Origin: a virus
Lineage: Duplodnaviria; Heunggongvirae; Uroviricota; Caudoviricetes
Length of the DNA: 4,272 nt
Strand: one strand, 5' to 3'
Virus record (IMG/VR): IMGVR_UViG_2531839236_000006
Part shown: positions 1-4,272 of the stretch, one piece after another
Layout: each line of letters starts with the position of its first letter
Position numbering within the stretch: the stretch's first letter is position 1
Translations under genes and position numbers: made by a program
The notes under the pieces: generated by a model
Told to the model about the DNA's origin: nothing
What the model saw: the letters and a program-made list of their open reading frames with translations, nothing else
Databases searched by the model: none

Positions 1-476
1 CTCAGATTGGCGCGATGACTGAACAGCAAATCCGGCAGGTCTGCCGTCAGTGCATGGACCGCTGCCGGGCGGGTGAAACGTGGCCTCCGGACCTGGCTGA
101 GTTTGTGGCGTTGATTTCGGAGAGCGGGGCAAATCCATTTGGCCTGACGGTGGATGCCGTGATGGAGGAGTACCGTCGCTGGAGGAATGAATCCTGGCGG
201 TACGACGGGAGTGATAAATACCCGTGGCCACAGCCGGTGCTGTACCACATTTGCCTCGAGATGCGTGACAGAGGGATTGAGCGGCAGATGACGGAAGGTG
301 AGTTAAAACGACTTGCAGAACGGCAACTGACGAAATGGGCAAAGCAAGTTGGTAACGGGATGAGTATTCCCCCGATCCGGAGACAACTCGCATCGCCGAA
401 GTGCCCGCAAGGGCCAACGCCAATTGAATTACTGAAACAGGAATACGAGCGCCGGAAGGCGGCTGGTTTTGTTTGA
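1..476 (+). CDS. Replication protein P-like (lambda P family), C-terminal part; 5' end lies upstream of the window
   Basis: Reading frame is open from the window edge (no stop in frame between 1 and the ATG at 15) to TGA 474-476. The translation shows motifs that I recall from the C-terminal half of lambda P (FVA..., YPW..., T-x-x-EL-[KR]-R-x-A-x-x-L), recalled from memory and not aligned. The ATG at 15 is probably an internal Met. Confidence 0.7.
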   Translation, partial: QIGAMTEQQIRQVCRQCMDRCRAGETWPPDLAEFVALISESGANPFGLTVDAVMEEYRRWRNESWRYDGSDKYPWPQPVLYHICLEMRDRGIERQMTEGELKRLAERQLTKWAKQVGNGMSIPPIRRQLASPKCPQGPTPIELLKQEYERRKAAGFV

Positions 477-509
477 ATCTGAGAAACGATTTTGTCGGAG
501 GAAATTTTA

Positions 510-1226
510 ATGGAAACCGTATCTGACGCACTGAAAGCACTGAAAAGAGCCTCTTCACATGTGGTGGCAGCTCGCCTTGGAATTAGTCGTGAAGAGGCTG
601 TCAACGAACTGTGGAAACTGAAACGCCGTGGAGAAGCGGATAACAAGGGGGCGATATGGTGGCTGACTCAGGCTGGTGAAAGTGAACCGGTGTCACCGGT
701 ACCGAAAGTGACGGCGCAAATGCTGACAGAGGCGATTGAACAACATGGCCCACAAACGGCGGATGAACTGGCATTGATGTTCGGAATTACCTCCCGCCGG
801 GCGAATTCATCGCTGGCAATGGCAATCAGCAAAGGGTGTCTGATTCGCGTGAATCAGGATGGTAAATTTCGTTACTGCATACCGGGCGTTGATTTACCGG
901 CAGAGCCGAAAGCAGCATCCGTAGCTGAAACGGAGGGTAAAGCCCTTCCTCAGCCAGCTGGTGTTGCGTTACCAGTCCAGGAAACGGCTGCACAGGAAGA
1001 AATTAAAACAGAAGCGGTGGAGGACATTGTGAAGTTGCAGCAATCGTTCACTGAAGCGAAAGCAGATGACCTGATTCTACCATCGCTGCATGTGGCTAAC
1101 CGCGAGCTGCGCCGGGCGAAAAGTAATGTTCAGAAGTGGGAGCGAGTCTGTGCTGCGCTACGGGAACTGAACAAACACAGGGATATTCTCCGGGATATTA
1201 CCGCCACCAGAGAGCAGCAGCGGTGA
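510..1226 (+). CDS. Hypothetical prophage protein, 238 aa: two winged-helix-like segments then a charged, coiled-coil-like C-terminus (possibly DUF1627-like)
   Basis: ATG 510 has GGAGG at 497-501 (8 nt spacing); the track's TTG at 492 lacks an SD. Long ORF in coding-like composition. The N-terminus ([25 protein letters not shown]) and a second segment ([31 protein letters not shown]) look like winged-helix recognition regions. Family name is recalled, not verified. Confidence 0.65.
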
Positions 1227-1540
1227 GTGGCTGGAAGAAGTGGCGCTGGGCTGAAATCCTGATACTCCGGCAGTGTGCGGGAACGATGAGAGTCGAAAGC
1301 ATCGGTTATCTGATTGGCCGTAGTGAGTCAGCCGTCAGGACGAAAGCGCGGGAACTGGGTATCAGCATGATGTTACGGGGTGATTATCACCAGTCAGCCA
1401 AATGTTCACAGCGTGATATTGAGCTGGCGTGGCAACTGCATCAGCGTGGTGTACCCCGACGGGAAATTGCCGAAAAGTTTGGGATGAAGTTGGGCGCAGT
1501 GAATAACTACGTTTATTTCGACAGGAGGGTTCAGGAGTGA
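1223..1540 (+). CDS. Small DNA-binding protein with two tandem HTH-like repeats
   Basis: GTG 1223 overlaps the upstream stop TGA 1224-1226 (GTGA coupling); alternative start ATG 1286. Two copies of a W-x2-[ED]-x3-L...G-x-S/P-x2-IA-x2-[LF]G-x7-V pattern (about 1232-1380 and 1410-1520). Stop TGA 1538-1540. Confidence 0.55.
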
Positions 1541-1839
1541 GGGTGAGGGTTTATATCGCCGGTCCGATGACGGGATATGAAAATTTTAACCGCGAGGCAT
1601 TTCACAAAACGGAAGAGGTGCTGAAACGGGAAGGGCATACCGTTTTAAACCCGGCAGTACTTCCGGACGGGCTGACTCAGCCACACTACATGGATATTTG
1701 CATGGCAATGCTCCGTTGCGTGGATGCGGTTTACATGCTGAAAGGCTGGCAGCAGTCGGCAGGTGCAGGGGCTGAGCTGGCACTGGAGGAGAAACCGGGC
1801 CATGCGGTGATTTTTCAGGAGGTGGGCAGTGAATATTGA
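1537..1839 (+). CDS. DUF4406 family protein (nucleoside 2-deoxyribosyltransferase-like fold)
   Basis: GTG 1537 overlaps the upstream stop (GTGA), with AGGAGGG at 1523-1529. The translation RVYIAGPMTG...N...F......L...GH.V.NP......D.V..L.GW..S.GA..E...A...G..V fits the DUF4406 / deoxyribosyltransferase-like signature as I recall it. Confidence 0.8.
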   Translation: MRVRVYIAGPMTGYENFNREAFHKTEEVLKREGHTVLNPAVLPDGLTQPHYMDICMAMLRCVDAVYMLKGWQQSAGAGAELALEEKPGHAVIFQEVGSEY

Positions 1840-2146
1840 CCCGGCGATAACGATTGATATGGCCCTGAACGCCGGCCTGGCACTTCTTGGTTATTTCTAC
1901 ATTATGTTCTGCAGCGGACGATGGCTGTCACTGTTGTTCATGAAAAAATGGAATAAACGCCGTAAGCAGGAGCAACGCCAGAAGGCAATGGATGCATTTT
2001 TCGAAGCCTTCGGAATTGACGGCATGGAACCAGGGGATCCAGCTCGCGCAATCAGCAGAGGGGGTGTAGTAATCCTTGTATATCGGAGTGAAGAGAAAAA
2101 TGACGATCACAAAACAACGTGTAGAAGAAATCATATCCCGCATTGA
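1829..2146 (+). CDS. Small membrane protein: one predicted TM helix followed by a basic stretch
   Basis: GTG 1829 is preceded by a strong SD AGGAGG at 1817-1822 (6 nt spacing) and overlaps the 3' end of the DUF4406 gene by 11 nt. Hydrophobic segment ALNAGLALLGYFYIMFCSGRWLSLLF is followed by KKWNKRRKQEQRQK. The 3' end overlaps the next gene by 47 nt in another frame, so the distal part is less certain. Confidence 0.45.
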   Translation: MNIDPAITIDMALNAGLALLGYFYIMFCSGRWLSLLFMKKWNKRRKQEQRQKAMDAFFEAFGIDGMEPGDPARAISRGGVVILVYRSEEKNDDHKTTCRRNHIPH

Positions 2147-2417
2147 AATGTATGGACATGGTGCAGGGTATATCGCAGACGAGGTTAATGATCTGGCTAT
2201 ACTGGCGCTGAATTTATCAAATATCGCGAACCTGAAGCGATACGAGCTTGATATGGGAGGTTGCGACTCGTGCGGTCAGGATTGTGGCGCTGATATGACT
2301 GAAGATCCTGATGGTGATTATGTCCTGTTTGATGACGTGGTTAAGTTGTTTGAATTTGATACAACCACTCAAAAGTTAGAAATCCCGGCAAAGGAGGCAG
2401 CCAGTGGGCAAGATTGA
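2100..2417 (+). CDS. Hypothetical protein, 105 aa, acidic C-terminal half
   Basis: ATG 2100 with GGAG at 2085-2088; the track's start at 2076 is a TTG without an SD. Stop TGA 2415-2417. No recognisable motif beyond a Cys/Asp-rich stretch (GGCDSCGQDCGAD). Confidence 0.6.
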   Translation: MTITKQRVEEIISRIEMYGHGAGYIADEVNDLAILALNLSNIANLKRYELDMGGCDSCGQDCGADMTEDPDGDYVLFDDVVKLFEFDTTTQKLEIPAKEAASGQD

Positions 2418-2841
2418 CTATCAGGCACTGCGTGAGGCAGCACAAAACTATCAATCGACGCTGGCGTGGTATCAGGCTACCCCGGACAGCCCAAATGCTG
2501 AACGGGATTGTGATGCGGCTCTTGCTGCGTTTAAGCGTCACATCCGTCATCGGGAAGCGGATATTATCGCTGATTTGCTGGATGGACTGGAAGAAGCAAA
2601 ATCACAACTCAACGAGCAGCGTGAGTATTACGAAGGCGTTATCTCTGATGGGAGCAAGCGTATTGCTGAACTGGAAGCGCGGGAAGTTCAATTACCGACT
2701 CGCTACGACCTTCGATATGGACACCCGATAAATGCAGATGAGCGACATGTCATGATACCTAAAGAAAATGGCAGTTGGCTTTACCTGATTGACCTAGAAC
2801 ACGCATTACGCGTCGCTGGCATTCGCATCAAAGGAGAGTGA
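2404..2841 (+). CDS. Hypothetical coiled-coil protein, 145 aa, possibly ead/Ea22-like
   Basis: GTG 2404 with strong SD AAGGAGG at 2391-2397 (6 nt spacing); overlaps the upstream gene by 14 nt. The N-terminus IDYQALREAAQ and a central heptad-like charged region resemble prophage Ea22-like proteins as I remember them; this is unverified. Confidence 0.6.
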   Translation: MGKIDYQALREAAQNYQSTLAWYQATPDSPNAERDCDAALAAFKRHIRHREADIIADLLDGLEEAKSQLNEQREYYEGVISDGSKRIAELEAREVQLPTRYDLRYGHPINADERHVMIPKENGSWLYLIDLEHALRVAGIRIKGE

Positions 2842-2842
2842 G

Positions 2843-3034
2843 ATGAACGGACAAATATCAATTGTTCGACCAGGAGCATGTGACGATCGCGAAATACGAA
2901 TGATTATTCGTCTGGCGATGGGGAAAACAATAACTGCTCTCATTACTCCAGAAAATCTCGCATTAGCATTAACAGGAAAGTCAGACATGCCAGTAGAGCT
3001 AAAGCTGCGAAATGTTGAGATTAAGGTGAAATAG
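2843..3034 (+). CDS. Small hypothetical protein, 63 aa, AT-richer than its neighbours
   Basis: ATG 2843 lies 1 nt after the upstream stop (TGA 2839-2841), with AAGGAGAG at 2831-2838. Stop TAG 3032-3034. GC is about 41% by my hand count versus the low-to-mid 50s elsewhere. Confidence 0.5.
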   Translation: MNGQISIVRPGACDDREIRMIIRLAMGKTITALITPENLALALTGKSDMPVELKLRNVEIKVK

Positions 3035-3036
3035 CT

Positions 3037-3594
3037 ATGACCACTATTACCAAAGATCGACTGCTGACAATCCAGCATTGGCGCGAAACATACGGACCGG
3101 GTAGCAACGTTGTGCTTCCAGCAGAAGAAGCGGAAGAGCTGGCACGGATTGCGCTGGCATCACTGGCAGCAGTATCGGATGAACGAGCAGCCTATGAATT
3201 ATTTATGGAGAAGCGTTTCGGAGAATCTGTAGATCGCCGCAGAGCAAAAAATGGCGATAGAGAATACATGGCATGGGATATGGCGCTTGGCTGGATTATC
3301 TGGTGTCACCGCGCCGCCATGCTTCAGGCTGGAAACTTTCGGGAAAATAAGGGTTCGTCAACCAATAATTTTCGGATAATCTCGGAAACGTCAACCAACT
3401 CTCCGGCAATCCCTGATGAGGTGTTGTCCGCAATCCTGAAGGTCGCCAGGCTTCGTGCAGATTTCGATGCTTCTGAAGTGGACAGGCGAGGTATCGGTAG
3501 TTGTCTGGATGAGGCCGAGCAAGAACTTATCGTTACCATTAACGAATACGCCAGTCAGATCGCAGTAGAAGCGACACAGGGGGAGAACCAATGA
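3037..3594 (+). CDS. Hypothetical protein, 185 aa
   Basis: ATG 3037 lies 2 nt after the upstream stop, with AAGGTGA at 3024-3030. Long ORF in coding-like composition; stop TGA 3592-3594. No motif I can assign. Confidence 0.65.
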   Translation: MTTITKDRLLTIQHWRETYGPGSNVVLPAEEAEELARIALASLAAVSDERAAYELFMEKRFGESVDRRRAKNGDREYMAWDMALGWIIWCHRAAMLQAGNFRENKGSSTNNFRIISETSTNSPAIPDEVLSAILKVARLRADFDASEVDRRGIGSCLDEAEQELIVTINEYASQIAVEATQGENQ

Positions 3595-3668
3595 GCCGGC
3601 CAGATGCATTTGCAGGCGTTGCTATAGCTATTGCTTTTCTAGTATATGTTATTTGTCGGTGGGGGTAA
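3591..3668 (+). CDS. Candidate 25-aa hydrophobic micro-protein (MSRPDAFAGVAIAIAFLVYVICRWG)
   Basis: ATG 3591 overlaps the stop of the upstream gene (ATGA) and is preceded by GGGGGAG at 3578-3584. Single hydrophobic helix-length segment; stop TAA 3666-3668. Absent from the ORF track because of its size. Confidence 0.35.
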   Translation: MSRPDAFAGVAIAIAFLVYVICRWG

Positions 3669-3703
3669 AAACGTTCGCCGGGATTCACACCAAGGGAGGG
3701 AAT

Positions 3704-3808
3704 ATGTCGGATGATATTTCACTGGTAATGGAAGGCGCTCTGGCTGTTATTGCTGTTGTGGGTGTTTACTGCCTGGTTGTGTTTTTGATGGAGCGCCTGG
3801 GGAACTGA
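3704..3808 (+). CDS. Candidate 34-aa single-TM micro-protein (MSDDISLVMEGALAVIAVVGVYCLVVFLMERLGN)
   Basis: ATG 3704 is preceded by AGGGAGGG at 3692-3699. Acidic N-terminus, about 20 hydrophobic residues, charged C-terminus; stop TGA 3806-3808. Confidence 0.4.
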   Translation: MSDDISLVMEGALAVIAVVGVYCLVVFLMERLGN

Positions 3809-3818
3809 ATTCATTCCG

Positions 3819-3834
3819 TATGGGAATTCCCATA
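3819..3834. promoter_or_regulatory. Perfect 16-bp palindrome TATGGGAATTCCCATA, candidate protein-binding site or RNA hairpin
   Basis: The reverse complement is identical to the forward sequence. It sits 11 nt after the stop of the 34-aa ORF and about 15 nt upstream of the putative hok -35 element. Confidence 0.4.
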
Positions 3835-3848
3835 TCGGGCAAAACGGT

Positions 3849-3876
3849 TTGCTGTAAAGCGAGAGTTAAGTAGAAT
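3849..3876 (+). promoter_or_regulatory. Putative sigma70 promoter of the hok mRNA
   Basis: -35 TTGCTG at 3849-3854, 16-nt spacer, -10 TAGAAT at 3871-3876. This places the transcription start at about 3883-3885, directly at the segment that is complementary to the 3' fbi-like element. Confidence 0.5.
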
Positions 3877-3882
3877 TGCTGC

Positions 3883-3930
3883 GGGTGCTTGAGGCTGTCT
3901 GCCTCGGGCATGCCACCGTAAGGCAGACAG
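3883..3930 (+). promoter_or_regulatory. hok mRNA 5' leader: tac-like 5' segment plus a 10-bp stem-loop
   Basis: 3883-3894 GGGTGCTTGAGG is complementary to 4257-4269. Perfect inverted repeat CTGTCTGCCT (3895-3904) / AGGCAGACAG (3921-3930) with a 16-nt loop. No U-tract follows, so it is not an intrinsic terminator. Confidence 0.55.
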
Positions 3931-4003
3931 AGAAAAGCCCCAGTTAACATTACGCGTCCTGCAAGACGCTTAACATTAATCTGAGGCCCAATCTATGCTT
4001 CAC
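3930..4003 (-). ncRNA. sok: Putative Sok-like antisense RNA (antitoxin of the hok locus); ends approximate
   Basis: The minus-strand promoter predicts a start near 4003. The transcript would be antisense to the mok SD (GAGG at 3983-3986) and mok start codon (3995-3997). On the minus strand a compound hairpin (outer stem 3937-3943 / 3981-3987 with one mismatch, inner stem 3954-3958 / 3965-3969) is followed by UUUUCUCU (complement of 3929-3936), which is terminator-like. Confidence 0.5.
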
Positions 4004-4207
4004 AAACGTAGGTTAGCCTCTTACGCGCCGAAAGGCAAGGAGAAGCAGGTTATGAAGCAGCAAAAGGCGATGTTAATCGCCCTGATCGTCATCTGTTTAA
4101 CCGTCATAGTGACGGCACTGGTAACGAGGAAAGACCTCTGCGAGGTACGAATCCGAACCGGCCAGACGGAGGTCGCTGTCTTCACAGCTTACGAACCTGA
4201 GGAGTAA
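3995..4207 (+). CDS. mok: Mok-like reading frame (modulation of killing), 70 codons, in frame with and extending hok
   Basis: ATG 3995 with weak SD GAGG at 3983-3986, running in the same frame through hok to TGA 4205-4207. Same layout as I recall for mokC/hokC in E. coli K-12. Confidence 0.55.
   Translation: MLHKRRLASYAPKGKEKQVMKQQKAMLIALIVICLTVIVTALVTRKDLCEVRIRTGQTEVAVFTAYEPEE
4010..4038 (-). promoter_or_regulatory. Putative sok promoter
   Basis: Read on the minus strand: -35 TTGCCT (complement of 4033-4038), 17-nt spacer, -10 TAACCT (complement of 4010-4015). Located inside the mok reading frame, as in the plasmid R1 hok/sok model. Confidence 0.4.
4052..4207 (+). CDS. hokD: Hok/Gef family type I toxin, 51 aa, HokD (RelF)-type
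   Basis: ATG 4052 with AAGGAG at 4037-4042. The translation MKQQKAMLIALIVICLTVIVTALVTRKDLCEVRIRTGQTEVAVFTAYEPEE has the Hok architecture (N-terminal TM helix, conserved Cys, periplasmic tail). It matches my memory of E. coli K-12 HokD essentially residue for residue and differs at several positions from HokC. Confidence 0.9.
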   Translation: MKQQKAMLIALIVICLTVIVTALVTRKDLCEVRIRTGQTEVAVFTAYEPEE

Positions 4208-4256
4208 GAGACCTGGCGGGGGAGAAATCCCTCGCCACCTCTGATGTGTCAGGCAT

Positions 4257-4272
4257 CCTCAACGCACCCCAC
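4257..4272 (+). promoter_or_regulatory. fbi-like (fold-back inhibition) element at the 3' end of the hok mRNA; may continue past the window
   Basis: 4257-4262 plus 4264-4269 (CCTCAA-c-GCACCC) pair with 3883-3894 (GGGTGCTTGAGG), 12 bp with one bulged C. This 5'-3' pairing is the hallmark of hok mRNAs. Confidence 0.5.

Follow-up and report, generated by a model that had tools for sequence, protein, structure and literature searches.

How is the hokD toxin gene controlled where its own regulatory region has been kept? This question is raised by the 3' end of a stretch of viral DNA of 4,272 nucleotides (nt) (Caudoviricetes; IMG/VR record IMGVR_UViG_2531839236_000006), referred to here as the window, in which a cassette of small genes on the + strand fills the last 425 bases. 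An earlier sequence-only reading of the window had described this cassette as a hokD-type hok/sok locus with its own promoter, a structured leader, an in-frame mok gene, an antisense sok RNA and a 3' fold-back inhibitory element (fbi). The hokD-type module is real: every element listed in that reading is present, at or near the place it had assigned, and the agreement is far beyond chance. The DNA-level evidence settles the identity of the locus. Positions 3848-4272, together with about 25 nt past the window end, probably make up a hok/mok/sok type I toxin-antitoxin module of the hokD type that is structurally intact. Such a locus is ordinary, already known and very common, and it is no discovery; it has been annotated since 1999 and the locus type has been tested experimentally.

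The identification of the toxin as HokD in the sequence-only reading was correct. The Hok peptide of 51 amino acids (aa) (MKQQKAMLIALIVICLTVIVTALVTRKDLCEVRIRTGQTEVAVFTAYEPEE), encoded by the open reading frame (ORF) at 4052-4207, agrees with HokD of an E. coli K-12 derivative at 51/51 residues, and it matches the Pfam family PF01848 HOK_GEF (82.9 bits, E=1.2e-23) and PHROG 251 'MokW-like host killing' (E=2.8e-33). The mok frame has the same layout in the translated locus of an R1-type plasmid and in the annotated mokW of phage 933W, where mokW and hokW are annotated with a shared stop. The idea that R1 mok is out of frame with hok was rejected, as translation of the R1-type locus shows an in-frame mok. 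Translation of hok is predicted to be coupled to that of mok. The leader at 3883-4057 matches the Rfam family RF01794 'sok' over model positions 1-157 of 157, scoring 114.9 bits (gathering score 59, E=1.4e-26), and a weak match to the snoRNA ceN48 (E=0.99) was regarded as chance. The mRNA start was placed by its homology with two references, the 5' end of the Rfam model and the R1-type GGCGCUUGAGG. The hok -10 element lies at a fixed distance of 6 nt upstream of this start, GGGUGC, and is kept in hokD-type loci; other genera have TATAAT, TATATT or TACAAT in its place. The ends of the Sok RNA were transferred from the sokW annotation of phage 933W, and the predicted Sok fold has -29.2 kcal/mol (z -5.2). 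The features of the locus are collected in Table 1.

Table 1. Elements of the hokD-type locus at the 3' end of the window.
Feature	Position	Strand	Remarks
hok/mok promoter	3848-3876	+	weak -35 TTTGCT (3848-3853) or TTGCTG (3849-3854); -10 TAGAAT (3871-3876)
hok mRNA, full-length form	3883-4272	+	truncated by the window end
tac (translational activator element) GGGUGCUUGAGG	3883-3894	+	partner of fbi in the full-length fold
leader 5' stem-loop	3895-3930	+	predicted to fold; consensus helix 2
Sok antisense RNA, ~71 nt	4003-3933	-	14-nt single-stranded 5' tail, long hairpin, UUUU
ucb / anti-Shine-Dalgarno AAGCCCC	3935-3941	+	pairs with the mok Shine-Dalgarno region 3983-3987 in the full-length fold
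Sok-target hairpin (complement of the Sok hairpin)	3942-3982	+	predicted to fold; Rfam match
mok Shine-Dalgarno GAGG	3983-3986	+	8 nt before the ATG at 3995
mok ORF	3995-4207	+	70 codons; in frame with hok, same stop codon
sok promoter	4010-4038	-	-35 TTGCCT (4038-4033), 17-nt spacer, -10 TAACCT (4015-4010)
hok Shine-Dalgarno AAGGAG	4037-4042	+	read from the sequence; invariant across the family
hok toxin gene	4052-4207	+	51 aa; identical to K-12 HokD
3' untranslated region (UTR) hairpin GGCGGGGGAG-AAAU-CCCUCGCC	4215-4236	+	minimum free energy fold; consensus helix 12
fbi (fold-back inhibitory element) CCUCAACGCACCC	4257-4269	+	12 base pairs and one bulge with tac in the minimum free energy fold; conserved, covarying

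K-12 hokD had been described as lacking an upstream regulatory region of its own, and alignment of the window with the K-12 relB-relE-hokD region (hokD is also named relF; Qin prophage), one of the checks that had been proposed, bears this out. The shared part is window 4038 onward only. It starts at AGGAGAAGCAGG in the hok Shine-Dalgarno (SD) sequence, 14 nt before the hok ATG, and has relB-relE upstream of it in K-12. From 4038 to the end the DNA is 98.3% identical, with hok SD, 3' hairpin, fbi and terminator all included, and both loci encode the same toxin. All that K-12 keeps of the leader is the part from 4038 on, including AGGAG of the hok SD. As the breakpoint at 4037/4038 falls inside the sok -35, K-12 has lost its hok promoter, tac, 5' stem-loop, ucb, Sok target, mok SD and mok start, and it has also lost the sok promoter, the -10 wholly and the -35 for the most part; the window has them all. 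In place of the leader, K-12 has relBE and a 71-nt spacer. The K-12 region upstream of hokD, with relE, relB and the spacer, gives no Rfam sok match at E up to 10, while the window has the full Rfam leader. A supposed relic of a hok leader in the K-12 spacer (GCTTTGCG, shared with the R1 leader and found by eye) was dropped for lack of an Rfam sok match, and other weak Rfam matches in the K-12 region, apart from a similarity to isrK described below, were regarded as chance.

K-12 and the window-type locus have the same 3' neighbours, namely a small hypothetical gene, DUF968 and a Q-type antiterminator. K-12 hokD thus occupies the same position in the prophage, and the K-12 locus is the derived form. 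The window locus is the intact form of the K-12 stump, in keeping with the proposal that it is the counterpart of a degenerate locus. In the K-12-type relBEF arrangement hokD lies directly 3' of relB-relE and has no leader of its own; the window locus has phage genes upstream and a full leader. The literature on K-12 states that hokD is co-transcribed with relBE (PMC5120126), that integration of relBE shortened an ancestral 70-codon hokD frame (PMC6379469, citing Ramisetty and Santhosh 2016), and that K-12 hok loci were inactivated by insertion sequence elements or rearrangements (Pedersen and Gerdes 1999, quoted after PMC12214031 and PMC7232551).

The RNA elements are not only present in the window but are also conserved and covary among relatives. 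Loci were taken from one genome per species, viral contigs, phage 933W, O157 strains and an R1-type plasmid, and an alignment for covariation was built from 38 distinct loci, all full-length, of Escherichia, Kluyvera, Photorhabdus, Pantoea, Citrobacter and the R1-type plasmid. The RNAalifold consensus of these loci recovers the end helix of tac and fbi, with 99.6% of cells paired; one of its pairs (columns 4/427) is UA in 24 loci and CG in 12. Of the cells in the 64 consensus pairs, 97.1% are paired, and sliding the partners by 1-3 columns lowers this to 37-45%; compensatory changes are found in 19 of the 64 as compared with 3-11 in the slid controls. None of 500 shuffles reaches the observed values of pairing and compensation. 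In helix 2 of the consensus, the 5' stem-loop, compensatory changes are found in 2 of the 8 pairs and the share of paired cells is 99.7%. Helix 3 (ucb/SD) has an exchange of AU (26 loci) for GC (12) at columns 77/119, and helix 12, the 3' UTR hairpin, has compensatory changes in 3 of its 8 pairs. In a set of 93 distinct hokD-type loci, tac, fbi and the sok promoter are nearly invariant, and the hok coding sequence has 0.038 differences per nt. Presence, conservation and covariation are in this way observed for every RNA element, alongside the identity of the toxin.

The plasmid R1 locus was represented by that of an IncFII plasmid, the Hok of which is 100% identical to R1 Hok. Comparison with this locus, another of the checks proposed, showed no change in the order of the named elements, all of which are present in both: tac, then ucb, Sok target, mok SD and in-frame mok, followed by the sok promoter inside mok, dcb, hok and fbi in hok/sok (parB) of R1/IncF as in the window. 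Complementarity of tac and fbi is maintained by compensatory change (GGCGC/GCGCC in R1 as against GGGUGC/GCACCC in the window). The Hok of the window and that of R1 are strongly diverged; HokW and R1 Hok share 44% identity (PMC8621323). The two loci also differ in that the Sok-target hairpin is longer in the window, the 5' stem-loop of the R1 leader contains an additional insertion, the terminators are different, and the R1 locus is on a plasmid whereas that of the window is in a prophage. The hokC (gef)/mokC/sokC locus is closer, with 82% Hok identity, the same tac GGGUGCUUGAGG, a near-identical fbi (the CUUCAACGCACCC variant) and an in-frame mok. Its leader is 20 nt shorter because its Sok-target hairpin is shorter, and it occupies a fixed chromosomal site whereas the window type is found in prophages.

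The mokW/hokW/sokW locus of the Stx2 phage 933W and Sakai prophage Sp5 (AF125520) has 92.3% DNA identity to the window over 429 nt. Both loci are in lambdoid prophages and have a 169-nt leader, a 70-codon in-frame mok, a 51-aa Hok (47/51 residues identical), and identical sok -10 and -35, tac and fbi. They differ in four residues at the Hok C-terminus (TA..P..E in the window, VD..S..K in HokW), in 3 of the 14 nt of the target of the Sok 5' tail, and in the terminator. The 933W locus is near attR amid hypothetical genes, whereas the window locus is between the replication/Ead block and DUF968-RusA-Q. The 933W/Sp5 locus has been studied experimentally: hokW-sokW is a working toxin-antitoxin pair of type I, active in its native prophage, HokW is toxic, and sokW expressed from its own promoter, the RNA of which is detected by northern blot, protects against it (Takada et al. 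2021, PMC8621323). Mutation of the sokW -10 leads to toxicity (PMC8621323), and, as we read the primers YO-421/YO-422 of that study, the mutated -10 is the sequence found at the sok -10 of the window. After treatment with mitomycin C, the sokW RNA vanishes and HokW accumulates in the inner membrane in a RecA-dependent manner, and deletion of hokW-sokW halves the release of Sp5 phage (PMC8621323).

Expression, processing, Sok turnover and killing at the window copy are presumed to follow R1 and hokW-sokW, and the steps given here follow the plasmid R1 paradigm as summarised in PMC9841398. A weak constitutive promoter would yield a stable mRNA of ~420 nt, the nascent 5' end of which would be held in a metastable hairpin. 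In the complete transcript, the 5' tac would pair with the 3' fbi and ucb would mask the mok ribosome-binding site, so that the full-length mRNA would be neither translated nor bound by Sok. Slow trimming of the 3' end would remove fbi; tac would then pair with ucb instead, leaving both the mok SD and the Sok target exposed. Sok, an unstable RNA of 71 nt made from the promoter inside mok, would bind the mok start region via its 5' tail, and the duplex would be destroyed. When sok transcription stops, mok would be translated, followed by the coupled hok, and the 51-aa Hok peptide would depolarise the inner membrane.

The predicted folds of the window RNA pass through the same states. The minimum free energy (MFE) fold of 3883-4272 has -164.9 kcal/mol, against -121.9 +/- 5.9 for shuffled sequences (z -7.26, 0/100 shuffles), and in it CCCC at 3938-3941 masks the mok SD. 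The first 33 nt, taken as the nascent RNA, are predicted to form a metastable hairpin that hides tac (-21.2 kcal/mol, z -4.3). When the last 32 nt are removed, tac is predicted to switch to ucb (3935-3941) in the resulting 358-nt form, and the mok SD to pair with dcb GCCUC at 4016-4020. These alternative pairings come from folding the 33-nt, 390-nt and 358-nt forms and are predicted, as opposed to probed, structures. For R1 hok mRNA, a metastable, a tac/fbi, a tac/ucb and an SD/dcb state have been described (PMC9841398).

The trigger is most likely the loss of Sok at prophage induction, with the toxin assisting lysis as the hokW-sokW results suggest; prophage loss or infection by another phage would be alternative triggers. 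The latter two correspond to a reading in which the module is active and its chief role is prophage addiction or abortive infection and not help with lysis, to which we give limited credence. R1 hok/sok is the classical post-segregational killer and reportedly lowers the plating of T4 (cited in PMC8621323), and hok is about fourfold enriched in prophages according to a recent survey (bioRxiv 10.1101/2025.08.07.668861). Shut-off of host transcription by an infecting phage may also deplete Sok, as rifampicin does. Against this, the sole experiment on a prophage homologue, which covered toxin-antitoxin activity, lysis and phage release, found a lysis role in favour of the phage (PMC8621323), and the same survey reports that hok is not enriched near defence systems. 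Excision of an integrated prophage may be expected to be rare and would leave little for addiction to act on. PADLOC gave no match for Hok or Mok, which counts against this role while an abortive-infection effect is still compatible with it.

Several points weigh against an intact and active module. The hok -35 is weak, and a strict consensus scan of 3600-4272 flagged neither the hok nor the sok promoter, nor the Sok terminator; support for the promoters is therefore comparative and not consensus-based. The scan's single + strand call (TTAACA-18-TATGCT, 3970-3999) was taken as chance, as its -10 overlaps the hypervariable mok start and is not conserved. The window does not hold the hok mRNA terminator, since it stops 3 nt after fbi. 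In the O157 strain SS52, whose locus is 99.5% identical (L001), a terminator AACCCGCTTCGGCGGGTT with a T-run follows 6 nt after fbi (6468-6485), which places the terminator ~3-25 nt past the window end. The locus is thus cut by the window and the full transcript would be ~420 nt; the sequence-only reading was right about the completeness of the locus as to all other elements but not as to this one, and its estimate of ~390 nt for the mRNA was too short. The window copy also lacks 1 nt just 3' of fbi, a deletion seen in few relatives (2/93). Intact chromosomal hokA, hokB and hokC reportedly gave no post-segregational or rifampicin-induced killing (Pedersen and Gerdes 1999, as summarised in bioRxiv 10.1101/2025.08.07.668861). 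Polylysogens hold 5-6 related loci, and the Sok of another copy might silence that of the window.

Two further readings draw on these points. If the locus were a degenerate remnant or a chance resemblance with no functional hok/sok, it would be natural that the window ends before a terminator and that the consensus scan for promoters and terminators found none of the proposed signals. This reading is hardly credible, and it is refuted by the Rfam match over the full model (E=1.4e-26), the Pfam match (E=1.2e-23), both ORFs being open, the fold (z -7.3), the terminator in the 99.5%-identical locus, and the conservation of the locus in 78% of E. coli genomes. The locus might also be intact and phenotypically silent, being little transcribed or permanently repressed, possibly by the Sok of other loci, and would then be a selfish hitch-hiker. 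The reported inertness of wild-type chromosomal hokA, hokB and hokC in killing tests (summarised in bioRxiv 10.1101/2025.08.07.668861) would fit this, as would the weak hok -35, the presence of up to 9-10 related copies per genome, and a Sok body that, outside the 5' tail, differs from the Sp5 and Sp6 copies at 2 positions only. However, a dead element would hardly be expected to have a strongly conserved toxin and to preserve all its regulatory helices through compensatory changes, and activity in the native prophage has been shown for the 92%-identical hokW-sokW (PMC8621323). Permanent silence is accordingly judged unlikely, and the structurally intact module with a probable part in lysis at induction is preferred.

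The setting of the locus is that of a lambdoid prophage. The window is a part of its early region, with the module between the replication genes and a DUF968-RusA-Q block. Window 1-3418 is 99.7% identical to the Sakai prophage Sp6 and encodes replication protein P, DUF1627, a D5-like regulator, DUF4406 and Ead/Ea22, and the claim that the upstream genes are unrelated to relBE is therefore correct. Window 3148-4269 has its match in another O157 prophage (SS52, at 2.57 Mb), with 99.5% identity. A mosaic junction is seen at 3148-3418, with the crossover inside a 185-aa ORF (3037-3594). Just 5' of the hok promoter there are two small ORFs with hydrophobic products: one of 25 aa (3591-3668, MSRPDAFAGVAIAIAFLVYVICRWG), the ATG of which overlaps the stop of the preceding gene, and one of 34 aa with a strong SD (3704-3808, MSDDISLVMEGALAVIAVVGVYCLVVFLMERLGN). 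Neither has a PHROG match, and a hypothetical coding sequence of 105 nt is annotated at the matching position in SS52 and Sakai.

Fusions and truncations near the K-12 breakpoint were also seen in other genera. Kluyvera sp. CHPC 1.2972 (L030:2300-3216) has relBE and a spacer ~96% identical to those of K-12 (L003), with a premature stop in relE, and its fusion point with hok is at most 3 nt from the K-12 junction. The fused hok is ~72% identical to hokD and 92% identical to an intact-leader locus of Citrobacter youngae (L051). This points to two captures of hok by relBE at almost the same position, or else to recombination focused on it. Photorhabdus khanii (L048:2544-3153) has two tandem hok genes, the second of which keeps ~20 nt of leader, from GGCAAGGAG on; this is another truncation, with its breakpoint adjoining the hok SD. 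The 3' UTR of K-12 hokD (L003:3179-3260, corresponding to window 4216 to past the end) has a sub-threshold match to isrK, a small RNA of Salmonella prophages (25.1 bits against a gathering score of 50, E=0.003), which spans the hok 3' hairpin, fbi and the terminator.

A further observation concerns the toxin. At window 4190-4193, the Tyr47 codon UAC and the following G form the UACG motif of A-to-I editing by TadA, which would change Tyr to Cys. Editing of hokD in K-12 is given as ~6% in PMC12214031, and overexpression of HokD is toxic according to bioRxiv 10.1101/2025.08.07.668861. Recoding at Tyr47 by TadA may be an extra layer of control over toxin activity.

The intact form is more common than the truncated one. 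Among 5426 complete E. coli genomes, 4252 have the leader (3849-4040, at least 80% coverage), the median being 2 copies and the highest number 9, as against 1177 genomes with the K-12 relE-hokD junction. The leader of O157:H7 PV15-279 is 100% identical to that of the window. The toxin is named HokD in these genomes by the Prokaryotic Genome Annotation Pipeline (PGAP), and nothing is annotated by PGAP over the hok leader or the sok RNA in any sampled genome. In Sakai, the Sp6 mok ORF ECs_1520 (L004:8033-8245) is mislabelled 'regulatory protein MokC for HokC' despite its HokD-type toxin. The survey cited above finds hok in ~80% of Enterobacteriaceae genomes, fourfold enriched in prophages, with thousands of prophage hok genes catalogued (bioRxiv 10.1101/2025.08.07.668861).

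One block departs from the general conservation. Window 3987-4010, which holds the target of the Sok 5' tail, the mok ATG and codons 2-6, is the most variable transcribed block among the 93 distinct hokD-type loci. The 14-nt tail target (3990-4003) has 0.33 pairwise differences per nt, against 0.045 in the rest of Sok and the 0.038 of the hok coding sequence, and is thus ~7 times as variable as the rest of the locus. The 93 loci hold 17 distinct tails, with at least 7 major alleles. The allele of the window is found in 508 of the 5426 E. coli genomes at 539 places (median 1 and at most 2 copies per genome). Sampled O157 and O26 carriers of this allele hold 5-6 hokD-type loci, and in the three genomes inspected (3/3) all tail alleles within a genome are different. 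As a tentative explanation, diversifying selection may act on antisense recognition, such that each co-resident prophage keeps a private Sok-hok pair that the Sok of a neighbour cannot neutralise.

The value of the locus is chiefly for annotation, as the leader and the sok RNA are left unannotated by PGAP. The textbook K-12 hokD is a derived, truncated form, and intact copies, often several of them, are present in 78% of complete E. coli genomes. The variability of the Sok-tail target is the one item that might repay work; if selection for private Sok-hok pairs is indeed its cause, diversification of the Sok tail would resemble, at the level of RNA, the incompatibility or immunity groups of plasmids.

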